Part shown: piece by piece, positions 6,417 through 29,780 of the stretch
How positions within the stretch are numbered: position 1 is the stretch's first letter
How the letters are laid out: every line of letters begins with the position of its first letter
Virus record (IMG/VR): IMGVR_UViG_2534681675_000028
Length of the DNA: 34,318 nt
Strand: one strand, 5' to 3'
Source of the DNA: a virus
Taxonomy: Duplodnaviria > Heunggongvirae > Uroviricota > Caudoviricetes
The notes under the pieces: generated by a model
What the model was told of the DNA's origin: nothing
What the model saw: the letters and a program-made list of their open reading frames with translations, nothing else
Databases searched by the model: none
Position numbers and translations under genes: made by a program

Positions 6417-6993
6417 TATCGCGTCCTCAACAATGAATTTTGTGATGCGGTGCCTGGTGCCTCCAGGTGACGTTAACCAGTTAACAATTAACGCCGGATA
6501 CAGAGAATCCACCCATAACACTGTTTTTGGTTTTAACTGTTCCGCGTGCGCTGAGCCGCATTCACCGCATCACAAAATTCACTTTTAAAAAAGGGCGGCA
6601 GAGCAGTCACGGAGTAAAACTGATACCGCCAAATGTCACCAGAATATTGATAACAGAGGGCGTTGTAGCGGGGTTGTCACTTAAGCGTATGGTCAACCTG
6701 ACAACCCGGTGTCCTCAACGGGGAAAGGCGTCCCTCCCACCCCCGCCATACTTACCGCCGCGCCATTTCGCGGGTCGCCACAACCGGAAGCGCACGGTCG
6801 AATTAAATTTAACGACACCGTGCAGTGAGACGAACTTCGCCGTGCGCTTTCGTGTTGTGTGCCTGCTTTTAACCACGTCAGGCGAGGTGGTTTCCGTCAT
6901 TCCCCAACGACAGGAAATCTGTATAATCTGGGTATCCCCAACGATCCAAGGAAATCATATGACAGAGCAAAGAGCACAAGCAGGTGATGGTGT

Positions 6994-7904: not shown

Positions 7905-8060
7905 TCACTCACCTGAATTTCTTTCCAGCCAGCGACGCGCGCCAGCTTCGGTTTTAAACGTTTTGCTTCTGGTATACGTCATCGCGGTGAACGTGCCGTC
8001 CTGGTTGGGAAACACGCCGTACACCAGAGATTCGTTGTTGCCAAGATCGATAGTATCCAT
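7905..8060 (-). CDS. Small 51-aa early-left protein (MDTIDLGNNESLVYGVFPNQDGTFTAMTYT…), possibly Rac YdaF-like
   Basis: ORF 7905-8141 trimmed to the internal Met, which has a well-spaced GAGG Shine-Dalgarno; first gene downstream of the putative OL/pL region. Confidence 0.4.
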   Translation of the reverse strand: MDTIDLGNNESLVYGVFPNQDGTFTAMTYTRSKTFKTEAGARRWLERNSGE

Positions 8061-8242
8061 GCTGACCTCATTTCCCCTTAACGCCGGGGTAGCGGAACAA
8101 AAACCTGCTGCATAGTTATTAAAGTTGAACCCTGCCGTCATGTTCTTACGCCTCGGGCTGGCTACTTAACCCCTGACCACTGCCGGGTAACTCTAGGTAT
8201 TGCCCTGCGTTCTGTGGGGCGGGGTGGGTTGGCATGTATATA

Positions 8243-8283
8243 ATGTACTTTATGTTCAGTGTTGTAAAGTACTTTGAGTACAT
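8243..8283. promoter_or_regulatory. OL-like operator cluster (ATGTACT / AAAGTACTTT / GAGTACAT motifs) at the head of the early-left operon
   Basis: Repeated and palindromic GTAC-centred motifs; the same ATGTACTCAAA motif recurs, inverted, in the repressor/cro intergenic region. Confidence 0.4.
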
Positions 8284-8358
8284 TTTATGTGTAAAAAAAT
8301 GAGATGGGAAAAAGTGAAGCACAAACCCGGAGGGGGACGCTACCGGATTTATGCTGGT

Positions 8359-8778
8359 TTAAGAGGCTTTTTGTTTTTTCTTTCGTGCTAACTCTTCGTA
8401 AATTGCATTGTACTTTTGTTTTTTCTCCTCAAGAGTTTTTAAAAGTTCATCTGTCTCACTGTCAGGGAGCTCGTCCAGAAGATCAATGATGATTTTTTGT
8501 CTTGGATTTAACTCCTGATAGAAACGTACCTGTCCACTTTCTTCTGTATCCTCTCCCAAAAGATAGGTTGGTGTTGTTCCAATGAGTGTTGCTAATTCCC
8601 TTAATTTCTCTCGGCGAGGAATTGTTTCGCCATTAAACCATTTGCTAACCGCTTTTGGTGTTAATTTCATTCGACGGGCAATTTCTGCCTGCCTTCCATG
8701 TTGTTCATAACCAGCGTTTTCACAGGCTAGCGCAAGCCTACTGGCGAACTCTTTACGCGCTTTATCTTCATGAACCAT
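8359..8778 (-). CDS. Prophage repressor (CI-like function), XRE-family HTH, no S24 peptidase domain
   Basis: 139-aa ORF with HTH (QAEIARRMKLTPKAVSKWFNG); divergent from a cro-like gene; no Shine-Dalgarno upstream (possibly leaderless like lambda cI). Confidence 0.7.
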   Translation of the reverse strand: MVHEDKARKEFASRLALACENAGYEQHGRQAEIARRMKLTPKAVSKWFNGETIPRREKLRELATLIGTTPTYLLGEDTEESGQVRFYQELNPRQKIIIDLLDELPDSETDELLKTLEEKKQKYNAIYEELARKKKQKAS

Positions 8779-8857
8779 AAGTTCAATGATATTCGCTCTT
8801 GAATGTACTGTCAGTTCTGTTATAGCATGTACTCAAAGTTCACATTGTGAGGGTGAT
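8779..8857. promoter_or_regulatory. OR-like operator/divergent promoter region between repressor and cro-like gene
   Basis: 80-bp intergenic region containing two ATGTACT motifs (TGAATGTACTG, AGCATGTACTCAAAG). Confidence 0.45.
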
Positions 8858-9112
8858 ATGAACCAGAAAACACTTGAAGATGTAATCAAAACTGTTCGCG
8901 TTTCTGTTGTGGCCGACGTTTGTGGTGTCAGCCAAAGAGCAATCTACAAATGGATGGATAACGGAAAATTGCCTCGCACTGAATATACCGGCGAAACAAA
9001 TTATGCTGAAAAAATCGCTCATGCATCAAACGGATTATTTTCTGCCGATGCAATTTTAACTATTGGCAGAAATAAAACTACTACGAAAAAGCTGTTGGGA
9101 GTTGATTCATGA
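8858..9112 (+). CDS. Cro-like HTH regulator (YdaS-like by recollection)
   Basis: 84 aa from the ATG with a GAGGG Shine-Dalgarno; HTH (VADVCGVSQRAIYKWMDNGKLP); divergent from the repressor. Confidence 0.6.
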   Translation: MNQKTLEDVIKTVRVSVVADVCGVSQRAIYKWMDNGKLPRTEYTGETNYAEKIAHASNGLFSADAILTIGRNKTTTKKLLGVDS

Positions 9113-9534
9113 AAATCAAGCATGAGCACATCCGCATGGCGATGAATGCCTGGTCGCATCCGGACGGCGAAAAAGTTCCGGCAGCTGAAATAACCCGGGC
9201 TTATTTTGAACTGGGTATGACGTTTCCGGAACTGTACGACGATTCACACCCAGAAGCCCTGGCTCGCAATACTCAGAAGATTTTCCGCTGGGTGGAGAAA
9301 GACACCCCTGATGCGGTTAAAAAAATTCAGGCGTTGTTACCAGCGATCGAAAAAGCAATGCCACCTCTGCTGGTGGCCCGAATGCGCAGCCACAGTTCAA
9401 CCTGGTTTCGGGAGCTGGTGGAGACGCGGGAACGACTGGTGAGAGACGCTGATGATTTTGTCGCAGTGGCGATCGCTGGTTTCAATCAGATGAATCGTGG
9501 TGGTCCGGCGGGAAATGCCGTGGTGATGCACTAA
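9109..9534 (+). CDS. CII-like early regulator (YdaT-like by recollection)
   Basis: 141-aa ORF starting MKIKHEHI…; start overlaps the cro-like stop (ATGA); position equivalent to cII. Confidence 0.5.
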   Translation: MKIKHEHIRMAMNAWSHPDGEKVPAAEITRAYFELGMTFPELYDDSHPEALARNTQKIFRWVEKDTPDAVKKIQALLPAIEKAMPPLLVARMRSHSSTWFRELVETRERLVRDADDFVAVAIAGFNQMNRGGPAGNAVVMH

Positions 9535-9557
9535 AAGCACGGTGTTCGGAGTTTTTT

Positions 9558-10505
9558 ATGAGCAGCAAGCTTCATGGTCTTGTCTGGGAAGGGTGTGCCT
9601 TCACCGGCATGATCTTATCCAGGGTGGCAGTAATGGCTCGCCTTGCAGATTACAGCAATGACGAAGGTGTGTCATGGCCTGCAGTGGAGACCATTCGTCG
9701 TCAGATTGGGGCAAAGAGTGAATCAACGGTTAAAGCGGCGATAGCGGAACTGGAAAAGAACGGCTGGCTGACGAAGGAGGAACGTAAGGTCGGTGGGCGT
9801 AATGAAAGCAATATCTACCGTCTTAATGTGGAAAAACTCGAAGCAGCAGCAGCGGCGGCGCGTGAGGCATATAAACCGAAAAGAAAAATTAACCCGGTAA
9901 AAAATGACCCGTCAAATATTGACCCCTCAACGGTTGACCCCTCAAATTTTGATGGATCAACCGTTGATAAAAAACATTCGGTTAGGGGGACGATGGTTGG
10001 CCCCGATCCGTCAGTATTAAAACCTGATCCGCCAGATAAAAGATCTTCTTGTCCGGACGCTTCGCAACCGGACCCGCAGATGGCTGAACAGGATTTTTTA
10101 ACCCGACACCCTGACGCGGTTGTGTTCAGTGCGAAAAAACGCCAGTGGGGCAGCCAGGAAGATTTAGCGTGTGCGCAGTGGATCTGGGGGCGAATCGTGA
10201 GTCTTTACGAGCAGGCTGCCAGCGATGATGGCGAAATCATGCGACCGAAAGAACCAAACTGGACTGCATGGGCCAATGATGTGCGCACAATGCGGATGCT
10301 GGATGGCAGAACTCACAGACAAATTTGCGAAATGTTTGGTCGGGTACAGCGGGATCCATTCTGGGTAAAAAACATCATGAGTCCGGCAAAACTCCGGGAA
10401 AAATGGGATGAGCTGGTTATTCGTCTGGGGCGTTCGCCTGTACAGCGTTGCGTGAATCACATTTCTGAACCGGATACCGAAATTCCGCCGGGGTTCAGGG
10501 GGTAA
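9558..10505 (+). CDS. Replication initiator (lambda O-like function), winged-helix N-terminus, with origin iterons inside the gene
   Basis: 315-aa ORF in the O position; contains four 11-bp iterons spaced 15 bp apart, encoding the repetitive NDPSNIDPSTVDPSNFDGSTVD. Confidence 0.65.
   Translation: MSSKLHGLVWEGCAFTGMILSRVAVMARLADYSNDEGVSWPAVETIRRQIGAKSESTVKAAIAELEKNGWLTKEERKVGGRNESNIYRLNVEKLEAAAAAAREAYKPKRKINPVKNDPSNIDPSTVDPSNFDGSTVDKKHSVRGTMVGPDPSVLKPDPPDKRSSCPDASQPDPQMAEQDFLTRHPDAVVFSAKKRQWGSQEDLACAQWIWGRIVSLYEQAASDDGEIMRPKEPNWTAWANDVRTMRMLDGRTHRQICEMFGRVQRDPFWVKNIMSPAKLREKWDELVIRLGRSPVQRCVNHISEPDTEIPPGFRG
9906..9961. repeat. Four direct iterons (TGACCCGTCAA, TGACCCCTCAA, TGACCCCTCAA, TGATGGATCAA) on a 15-bp period: putative replication origin
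   Basis: Direct reading of the sequence; iteron starts at 9906, 9921, 9936 and 9951. Confidence 0.55.
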
Positions 10506-14912: not shown

Positions 14913-15123
14913 AATGGCTTTTGTGTGCATGTTAAATAAAGAATACATGGCATCATTTAATGATGTCATGTGTAACGAGCGAAAAGCCTTTTGAACGGTT
15001 TTCATAAGTTATATTGAAAGATAAAATTGCTGCGGGTGCTTGAGGCTATCTGCCTCAGGCATGAACACCAACGGCAGATAGATAAAAGCCCCACCCGACT
15101 ATAAATCGAAGTGAGGCCCCTAT

Positions 15124-15336
15124 ATGCTCGTCACATACAGATTGCCTCTTACGGACCGAAAGGTCAAGGAGAAGCAGGCTATGAAGCAGCAAAAGGCGAT
15201 GCTAATCGCCCTGATCGTCATCTGTTTAACCGTCATAGTGACGGCACTGGTAACGAGGAAAGACCTCTGCGAGGTACGAATCCGAACCGGCCAGACGGAG
15301 GTCGCTGTCTTCACAGCTTACGAACCTGAGGAGTAA
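15124..15336 (+). CDS. mok: mok-like reading frame (N-terminally extended, in frame with hok)
   Basis: ORF in the same frame as hok sharing its stop codon, the arrangement I recall for chromosomal mok/hok pairs. Confidence 0.5.
   Translation: MLVTYRLPLTDRKVKEKQAMKQQKAMLIALIVICLTVIVTALVTRKDLCEVRIRTGQTEVAVFTAYEPEE
15181..15336 (+). CDS. hok: Hok/Gef-family type I toxin (51 aa)
   Basis: MKQQKAMLIALIVICLTVIVTALVTRKDLCEVRIRTGQTEVAVFTAYEPEE closely resembles Hok (…[25 protein letters not shown]…); AGGAG Shine-Dalgarno. Confidence 0.8.
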   Translation: MKQQKAMLIALIVICLTVIVTALVTRKDLCEVRIRTGQTEVAVFTAYEPEE

Positions 15337-15502: not shown

Positions 15503-15781
15503 ATGGCGCACGATACCAAATTACACAATTCTGATGATTCTGCCGTCTTTGCCAGCAGGCACGGGCTGCGTTCTCACGCATTCAAATATGACTGGTATCA
15601 GCACGATCCCTGTACTGAAGAACAGGCCGAATGGCTGATTCATAACTACCGCAGACGTGGGTATGAGTTTAAGAAAGCCCTCAGTCTCGATTATCGTCAC
15701 TGGATAATCTACGTCAGGCTCCCTTATTCCGAACGCCCGCCGCGTCCATCCCGCACATTCCAGCAACGGATCTGGAGGTAA
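15503..15781 (+). CDS. Hypothetical nin-region protein
   Basis: ORF 15374-15781 trimmed to the ATG at 15503, because the upstream part overlaps the hok terminator. Confidence 0.4.
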   Translation: MAHDTKLHNSDDSAVFASRHGLRSHAFKYDWYQHDPCTEEQAEWLIHNYRRRGYEFKKALSLDYRHWIIYVRLPYSERPPRPSRTFQQRIWR

Positions 15782-29737: not shown

Positions 29738-29780
29738 GCCTGAAAACAGCCCCCCGGGGGCTGTCCGGAGAGACAGCATT

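Follow-up and report, generated by a model that had tools for sequence, protein, structure and literature searches.

Repressors of the LexA/CI type carry an S24 domain, which performs RecA-stimulated autocleavage. The repressors of the Salmonella prophages Gifsy-1, Gifsy-2 and Gifsy-3 (GfoR, GtgR/GftR and GfhR) are short and non-cleavable; they are inactivated when antirepressors under LexA control bind to them, and part of these antirepressors act on the repressors of other prophages as well (PMC3121763). Lemire et al. named DicA and RacR as further members of this class in 2011 and predicted a wide distribution of such repressors in E. coli (PMC3121763). For DicA, the 135-amino acid (aa) repressor of Qin, a cryptic prophage in E. 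coli K-12, the small antirepressor Rem relieves repression of the promoter dicBp 165-fold; in the absence of Rem, ~1% of cells still switch on dicBp spontaneously, with a contribution from DicC (PMC10448788). Here, we describe a repressor gene and its operators at positions 8243-8857 of a 34,318-nucleotide (nt) sequence of a tailed phage (IMG/VR record IMGVR_UViG_2534681675_000028), referred to below as the window, i.e., the whole stretch that was analysed. It represents the immunity region of an E. coli prophage of the lambdoid, Qin/Rac-like kind, and its repressor combines a DNA-binding domain of the phage HK022 type with a C-terminal tail of the DicA/Gifsy type.

The repressor gene encodes 139 aa and lies between the left (OL) and right (OR) operators, i.e., in the cI position, divergent from a cro-like gene (Table 1). 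In a Pfam scan, the protein matched HTH_3/HTH_31 alone (residues 10-73; HTH_3 at 29-73), and its PHROGs matches were limited to 'transcriptional regulator/repressor' families. Peptidase_S24 (PF00717) was not found in the repressor by the Pfam search down to E <= 0.1. AlphaFold2 confidently predicted a five-helix helix-turn-helix (HTH) domain for residues 2-74, while the linker at residues 77-86 was disordered, with a predicted local distance difference test (pLDDT) score below 50. When searched against phages with tblastn, residues 4-102 were 47% identical to the CI repressor of HK022 and residues 1-73 were 50.7% identical to CI of the 933W type (933W/phi24B); full-length alignments were confined to repressors of the DicA type and a few further short ones.

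In a large protein collection, the nearest relatives of the N-terminal domain were Raoultella/Klebsiella proteins of 235-240 aa that contain Peptidase_S24 and show 62-72% identity across the initial 55-73% of the query. In a joint alignment, the similarity of these S24 relatives to the repressor stopped at YLLG(E/D), around residue 76. Past this point, the relatives carry SAGPG, GDSM and HVKRL (cleavage site, serine and lysine, respectively), whereas the window repressor lacks all three. It continues instead, like its Salmonella relatives (62-65% identity, 138-151 aa, thus of the short type as well), with a short acidic linker followed by LNPRQKIIIDLLDELPDSETDELLKTLEEKKQKYNAIYEELARKKKQKAS. The features of the LexA/CI-type S24 class, namely the S24 domain, the Ser-Lys dyad and the Ala-Gly/Cys-Gly site, are therefore absent from a protein that stops 52 residues past the linker; in comparison, HK022 CI has ~235 aa and an S24 autopeptidase domain in the place of this tail. 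Given that neither a cleavage site nor a catalytic dyad is present, direct inactivation of the repressor by RecA would be impossible. An earlier, first-pass annotation made from the DNA letters alone had proposed an N-terminal HTH, no LexA/S24-type peptidase region and, consequently, probably no induction by RecA-stimulated autocleavage. The domain search that it named as a check bore out the first two points, as only the HTH was recovered and the S24 fold that would speak against them was not detected, and the alignment supports the third, since Ala-Gly site, GDSM serine and lysine are all missing from the repressor.

The tail that replaces the S24 half was modelled by AlphaFold2 as a helical hairpin, with a short helix at residues 92-103 that a turn at LPDSE connects to a long helix at residues 106-138, so that the 'coiled-coil-like' C-terminus of the first-pass annotation was a fair description. 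Modelled alone from 31 sequences, the hairpin reached a pLDDT of 93.8. The repressor was 29% identical to K-12 DicA over 112 aa in a BLASTP alignment that reached the C-terminus, and both proteins are similar in size and share an XRE-family HTH, a linker and an LLxLFxxLPxSE hairpin, S24 being absent from both. Its hairpin also aligned with that of Gifsy-2 GtgR at an hhalign probability of 99.4%, and the identity between the two repressors is 25%; GtgR carries the shared C-terminal LLSLFNQLPEAE module as LDEKEETLLSLFNQLPEAEK. The best NCBIfam match of the repressor was NF007257 ('transcriptional repressor DicA'; 56.8 bits, E = 2e-15), with repressor residues 29-137 aligned to positions 20-132 of the 135 in the model. 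Considering that this score lies below the curated cutoff of 101 bits, and that K-12 DicA itself scores 234 bits, the repressor is DicA-like but not DicA.

The wider family became visible when all 50%-cluster representatives were searched with phmmer, which returned 983 proteins at E <= 0.001; a word-indexed search with the C-terminal 62 residues had given close relatives only. Among the best 150 of the 983 matches, at least 30 were short (115-167 aa) and aligned through their last residues. In an alignment of 33 diverse sequences, the hairpin recurred with the consensus LTxRxxxLLxLFxxLPxxEQxxLxxxLEEKKxxYDxLxEELLxxR and was conserved across strongly divergent DNA-binding domains. Neither a Pfam family for the hairpin nor a significant match in the PDB, by sequence profile or by fold, was found. 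The hairpin is an uncatalogued domain, without a Pfam family and without a solved structure, and it is probably a module for dimerisation and/or antirepressor binding. SinR-SinI (1b0n), Rep-Ant of SPC32H (5d4z) and an arbitrium-phage repressor/antirepressor pair (9iaq) are weak architectural analogues in that they combine an HTH with a short helical tail. Their whole-protein Foldseek E-values (0.01-0.05) were driven by the HTH domain, and the likeness of the models is one of design rather than demonstrated homology.

At its very end (8362-8385), the repressor carries KKKQKAS, in which small residues follow a basic run, and similar basic ends occur in many family members (RRKIAS, KKRRA, SKKVS and ARKAS). 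We take ends of this type to resemble the C-terminal recognition motifs of ClpX; the basic tail may act as a degron or make non-specific DNA contacts.

Together, the size, architecture and position of the protein (139 aa, a single HTH and the cI position), the absence of a cleavage site and dyad, and the shared C-terminal module place the repressor in the short, non-cleavable class. Judged from sequence, it is a natural domain hybrid with an HK022-type front end, in which the S24 half has been replaced by a linker and a 52-aa helical hairpin.

The front end is matched by operators of the same type. Lysines K42 and K46, which were modelled as base contacts in the 933W repressor (PMC3317979), are kept in the window repressor, and its recognition helix (TPKAVSKWFNGE versus TPKAISKWFNGE) differs from that of HK75 by one conservative residue. 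Position 41 is Pro, as in HK022, and not Ser as in the S24-containing CI of 933W. The HK75 record annotates oR1-3, oL1-3, pR and pL as 'similar to HK022', with the sites oR1 and oR3 both reading TGAACCATAAGTTCA, oR2 TGTACTATCAGTTCC, oL1 TGTACCTAAAGTTCA and oL2 AGTACCAGTAGTACA. We built a position weight matrix (PWM) only from these annotated HK75/HK022 operators, as read from the HK75 record. In the whole window, its top five positions were 8771, 8828, 8244, 8804 and 8268 (OR3, OR1, OL1, OR2 and OL2; Table 1), and shuffled sequences gave a mean of 0.31 and a maximum of 2 matches at the same threshold. The operator unit is a 15-bp palindrome, TGWAC-N5-GTWCA, which compares with the operators of phage 933W, likewise 15 bp long and with G(T/A)AC at the core (PMC3317979). 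Independently of the matrix, the 15-mer ATGTACTNNNNGTWC gave five matches at <=1 mismatch, representing four sites (OL2 on both strands), all of which fell within 8243-8283 and 8803-8841; none of 100 shuffles reached five.

The first-pass annotation had proposed ATGTACT as a candidate OL and OR half-site. Operator halves do lie on both sides of the gene, but the heptamer consists of one flanking base, the TGTAC half-site and one spacer base, the actual unit is the 15-mer, and OR has three sites, of which OR3, with its TGAAC halves, had been missed. ATGTACT occurs five times in the 34-kb window, four of these at 8243, 8277 (minus strand), 8803 and 8827, a count that is not significant (2.5 expected; 13 of 100 shuffles reached five). 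It is the pattern of the 15-mer, together with the independently built weight matrix, that makes the operators significant, and not the count of the 7-mer.

The arrangement of the sites is that of HK022 and HK75. When OR of the window was compared with that of HK75, 24B (933W-like), the Escherichia phage Tritos and a Salmonella relative, all aligned base for base. The start-to-start OR spacing of 24 and 33 bp recurs in HK75, Tritos, phage vB_EcoS-666R9 and the Salmonella prophages with short repressors, as well as in two sequences with S24-type repressors, one a Raoultella genome and the other a metagenome contig. Tritos, 666R9 and the Salmonella prophages also have two OL sites 24 bp apart. 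OR3 overlaps the ATG of the repressor gene and the predicted +1 of its promoter PRM, just as oR3 covers the cI start in HK022/HK75. In a variant allele of other strains, the changes inside OL1 (8252) and OL2 (8276) both fall at position 7', in the weakly specified centre, although eleven changes are too few for a statistical claim. The Cro-like protein is 58% identical to the Cro of HK75/HK022 and 47% identical to that of 24B; to DicC it shows no similarity, and to YdaS next to none. The locus thereby shows 15-bp operators, OR sites 24 and 33 bp apart with OR3 placed over the start of the repressor gene, an OL spacing of 24 bp and a homologous Cro, i.e., the features of an HK022-type switch. 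From the near-identical recognition helix and the identical oR3, we infer that the repressor would bind the five sites and give HK022 immunity.

A further palindrome-like sequence, TGCACTAAAAGCACG, lies at 9527-9541, at the end of the cII/YdaT-like gene and in the short gap before the O-like gene; its match to the operator matrix is weak (7.9). HK022 carries an extra operator (OFR) downstream of cro.

The placement of the promoters is likewise shared with HK022/HK75. The predicted PRM was the best promoter-like site of the region on the repressor strand in a promoter scan (10 of 12 positions). The predicted PR is homologous in position to pR of HK75 (TTGACT-16-CATAAT) in the alignment and is overlapped by OR2 and OR1; as it lies below the threshold of the promoter scan, we infer it. 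The annotated pL of HK75 has hexamers identical to those of the predicted PL and the same position. Between the -10 of PRM and the repressor ATG, there are 7 nt (TGAACTT), and a Shine-Dalgarno sequence was not found when the 20 nt upstream of the ATG were read. Phage 24B shows the same geometry, with TAGTAT, 7 nt and ATG, and in the record of this phage the start of pRM is annotated as lying 1 nt ahead of the cI ATG. The mRNA of lambda cI is leaderless. Given the promoter geometry and the homology to 24B, it is plausible that the repressor mRNA is leaderless or has a 1-nt leader. This upholds the 'possibly leaderless' of the first-pass annotation as far as the absent Shine-Dalgarno sequence and the 24B-like promoter are concerned, with the start itself a prediction. 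A precedent is PaaR2, a short cI-position repressor beside ydaS/ydaT-type genes in the lambdoid cryptic prophage CP-933P of E. coli O157:H7, whose leaderless mRNA was established by 5'RACE together with N-terminal sequencing (PMC8630535); its operon carries a toxin-antitoxin pair, and we use PaaR2 solely as a leaderless precedent, outside the sequence comparisons.

Directly past the repressor stop codon, the terminator-like hairpin of the RNA folds with a minimum free energy of -20.8 kcal/mol (z-score -4.24), and none of 200 shuffles folded as well. A simple terminator scan did not call this hairpin, which likely terminates the maintenance transcript. Four RNA runs contained the cassette as assembled contigs, the breaks of which (8098/8147/8179 and 9098-9132) are graph branch points and not transcript ends, and four raw-read RNA runs of 2026 contained almost no reads from the prophage; a 5' end was not recovered from either set.

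Table 1 Features of the immunity region and selected neighbouring genes, with positions in the window
Feature	Position	Strand	Remarks
First gene of the leftward (PL) operon, ydfA/ydaF-like	7905-8141	-	Pfam DUF1391, E = 6e-28
Predicted PL	8240-8268	-	-35 TTTACA, 17-nt spacer, -10 CATTAT; OL1 and OL2 overlap
OL1, TGTACTTTATGTTCA	8244-8258		PWM 15.7; aligns with HK75 oL1; overlaps PL -10
OL2, AGTACTTTGAGTACA	8268-8282		PWM 13.2; aligns with HK75 oL2; 24 bp from OL1; overlaps PL -35
Terminator-like hairpin, then U-rich tract	8318-8355	-	Directly past repressor stop codon
Maintenance repressor gene	8359-8778	-	139-aa open reading frame (ORF); stop codon 8359-8361
C-terminal helical hairpin, DicA/GtgR type	8362-8517	-	Residues 88-139, 52 aa
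N-terminal DNA-binding domain, HK022/933W CI type	8551-8778	-	Residues 1-76
OR3, TGAACCATAAGTTCA	8771-8785		PWM 20.0, best in window; identical to HK75 oR1/oR3; 33 bp from OR2
Predicted PRM	8786-8814	-	-35 CTGACA (8814-8809), 17-nt spacer, -10 TATCAT (8791-8786)
Predicted PR	8799-8828	+	-35 TTGAAT (8799-8804); -10 TATAGC (8821-8826) or TAGCAT (8823-8828)
OR2, TGTACTGTCAGTTCT	8804-8818		PWM 13.7; 13/15 bases as HK75 oR2; 24 bp from OR1; in PR spacer, overlaps PRM -35
OR1, TGTACTCAAAGTTCA	8828-8842		PWM 16.5, second best in window; aligns with HK75 oR1; covers PR -10 end and start region
Cro-like gene, 84 aa	8858-9112	+	Shine-Dalgarno GAGGGTG; phrog_35
CII-like/YdaT-family gene	9109-9534	+	Pfam YdaT_toxin; phrog_163 'CII-like activator'; outside exchangeable immunity cassette
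92-aa ORF	15503-15781	+	phrog_1212, function unknown; between hok and DUF968 gene

The prophage is integrated beside yccA. Its left part comprises genes for an integrase, an excisionase and an 827-aa exonuclease, then ydfD, dicB, DicF, ydfC/B/A, the repressor gene and cro, and its right part continues with the cII/YdaT-like gene, an O-like replication gene, hok/sok, a DUF968 gene, RusA, Q, lysis and head genes. The position of the DUF1391 gene matches ydfA in Qin and ydaF in Rac, and the leftward operon of Qin (ydfA-ydfB-ydfC-dicF-dicB-ydfD) represents the same setting as in the window, whereas the left operon of HK022 (Nun, put sites) differs from it. Unlike Qin, the window has a DNA-binding domain, Cro and operators of the HK022 type, and no Rem homolog was found in it. 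The small RNA DicF is present in full length at 6593-6644 on the minus strand (Rfam, 77 bits, E = 1.5e-15). The hok/sok module at 15034-15336 looks intact (Rfam sok, 102.9 bits; Hok ORF at 15124-15336).

The 'CI repressor' of Tritos is 100% identical to the window repressor, and phage vB_EcoS-666R9 carries a copy that is 99% identical. In 666R9, repressor and cro are 99% identical to those of the window, whereas the cII-like gene is only 31% identical. At least 80% of a 1.1-kb query spanning the cassette was matched in 1046 of 5426 complete E. coli genomes (~19%), and the 139-aa repressor belongs to a protein cluster with 411 members. Contigs of other strains from RNA runs match the cassette with 16 differences and run into unrelated sequence at ~8098-8179 and 9098-9132; by sequence comparison, these positions have the look of recombination boundaries, between which OL, repressor, OR and cro would form an exchangeable module. 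The Salmonella prophages whose short repressor has 62-65% identity carry, between the repressor gene and OL, an inserted pair of genes for a HigB toxin and an HTH protein (9553-10220 in L008 and 9588-10255 in L009; OL operators at 10313 and 10337), which is the position of rexAB in lambda.

Overall, we consider it likely that the locus is an HK022-type switch ruled by a short, uncleavable repressor of the DicA/Gifsy type, with derepression driven by an antirepressor. Repressor dimers held together by the hairpin would occupy OR1/OR2 and OL1/OL2 and block both PR (cro, the cII-like gene and the replication genes) and PL (ydfA...dicB...recE). The repressor would fill OR3, over its own +1 and ATG, when its concentration is higher, and would thereby limit its own synthesis. 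Its mRNA would begin at the AUG or 1 nt before it and end at the hairpin past the stop codon. Derepression would most likely occur through a small protein antagonist that binds the repressor, as in the Gifsy phages and in DicA-Rem, and that belongs to an unrecognised family or comes from another prophage; stochastic flipping through Cro would provide a background route. An antirepressor is favoured because small antirepressors are at work in the two branches that have been studied, Gifsy and DicA. By analogy, the antirepressors invoked in the first-pass annotation would correspond to the published mechanism of these relatives (PMC3121763; PMC10448788). Its overall interpretation is thus supported, with corrections of detail: the operators are 15-mers, OR has three sites and there is no antirepressor candidate in the searches of the window, Tritos and 666R9.

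The outcome of these searches weighs against an antirepressor-driven switch. No similarity to Rem or to the ORFs of the Gifsy-2 dinI region was detected in the window (tblastn E > 0.1), a gene of phrog_340, the Rem family, was not found in Tritos or 666R9, and none of the ~30 window ORFs scanned matched a family annotated as antirepressor. Outside the cassette, the three phages that carry the repressor share only ydfA, a DUF977 gene and hok. A window scan for LexA boxes (CTGT-N8-ACAG) revealed none in promoter position. The window stops within the tail genes, with the right end of the prophage lying beyond. A cognate antirepressor gene (Rem- or GfoA-like) was accordingly not found on the same element. 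As antirepressors of this class can act in trans, the missing cis gene does not exclude membership of the repressor in the class. Two copies of the Rem family are present elsewhere on the chromosome of OkiPb01695, the closest complete genome, which is compatible with action in trans and proves nothing.

The 92-aa ORF occupies a slot that is syntenic with rem of Qin and is found in Tritos (91%) but not in 666R9. We rejected it as a relative of Rem given that it has no sequence similarity to Rem and belongs to PHROG 1212 rather than 340; it is left as a candidate only.

Data on Tritos are available from strain LF82, where this plaque-forming phage is produced spontaneously, where ciprofloxacin induction was reported only for the prophages Gally and Cyrano, and where trimethoprim lowered the yield of Tritos 3.4-fold (PMC9928086). 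Its 'CI repressor' gene was transcribed 24-fold above background. HokD was the Tritos gene with by far the highest expression in LF82 (PMC9928086).

That no antirepressor candidate is common to the three phages would also fit a switch that has no dedicated antirepressor and is left only through stochastic repressor/Cro flipping, helped by instability or proteolysis of the repressor, perhaps via its basic tail. The spontaneous production of Tritos, which is not among the prophages reported as ciprofloxacin-induced, the Rem-independent firing of dicBp with its contribution from DicC, and the frequency in the family of ends made of a basic run and a small residue (as in KKKQKAS, RRKIAS and KKRRA) point in the same direction. 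We nevertheless regard this as rather unlikely, since both studied branches do possess antirepressors and since the conservation of the hairpin across divergent DNA-binding domains is more in keeping with a shared interface between proteins than with a simple degron. It is improbable that the prophage follows the pattern published for the related repressors of Gifsy-1, -2 and -3 (PMC3121763), where a LexA-repressed antirepressor gene on the same prophage ties the switch indirectly to the SOS response. Such a gene could lie in the part of the prophage past the window end, which falls inside the tail genes, and a perfect CTGT-N8-ACAG does exist at 15610-15625. However, this box lies within the coding sequence of the 92-aa ORF, and the second perfect one (29761-29776) within a 738-aa ORF of the late region; we therefore rejected the LexA boxes as evidence for SOS control. 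With <=1 mismatch allowed, the window contained 19 matches to the motif versus 10 expected. Neither a dinI-like gene nor a homolog of the Gifsy-2 dinI region was found in the window, nor a dinI/LexA-box antirepressor unit, and Tritos was not reported as ciprofloxacin-induced and yielded less with trimethoprim. The Tritos data and the null results of the antirepressor search thus argue against a Gifsy-like cis-encoded SOS link, and what is left is an unrecognised antirepressor family, a trans-acting antirepressor or none.

Considering that the closest relatives of the N-terminal domain are full-length S24 repressors, the gene could also be taken for the decayed remnant of such a repressor, or for something other than a maintenance repressor, e.g., an antitoxin-like regulator. 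We find this hardly credible. The C-terminal 52 residues form a conserved module that is shared with DicA, GtgR and dozens of divergent clusters and is modelled with high confidence, and they are not out-of-frame debris. Moreover, the repressor belongs to a large protein cluster, at least 80% of the 1.1-kb query around it is matched in about a fifth of the complete genomes, the gene occupies the cI position between OL and OR, and it is transcribed as the 'CI repressor' of a plaque-forming phage. An uncleavable maintenance repressor controlled by an antirepressor remains our preferred reading of the locus.

Short repressors of this class have been known since 2011 (Lemire et al.), an antirepressor of DicA since 2023 (Ragunathan et al.), and the HK022/933W switch is well studied; our findings are an extension and are not conceptually new. 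In the literature searched, we found no description of the join between a front end of HK022 specificity and a tail of the DicA/Gifsy type, and no structural or database description of the tail. As an uncatalogued domain, the hairpin deserves structure determination.

We tentatively propose that a single immunity specificity, consisting of the HK022-type DNA-binding domain, Cro and operators, exists with two interchangeable input modules, S24 or hairpin, and that the inducer in the latter case is an unrecognised or borrowed antirepressor targeting the hairpin. The idea is possible, if somewhat doubtful. If it is true, HK022, HK75 and the Raoultella/Klebsiella relatives would sense RecA directly via S24, whereas the type found in the window would not. 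Provided that the front ends also bind each other's operators, there would be a prophage type that is immune to HK022-like phages and blind to DNA damage. In this case, the antirepressor of a co-resident prophage, targeting the conserved hairpin, could be the inducer. The S24-type relatives on the same operators represent a natural experiment in which the induction input has been exchanged and the immunity specificity kept.

The cassette described here controls cell-division inhibitors of the dicB/dicF type, and an adherent-invasive strain has it in at least one phage that is live. In a large share of enterobacterial prophages, waking is governed by short, non-cleavable repressors, whose signals have been worked out only in the Gifsy phages (SOS via antirepressors) and partly in Qin (Rem).

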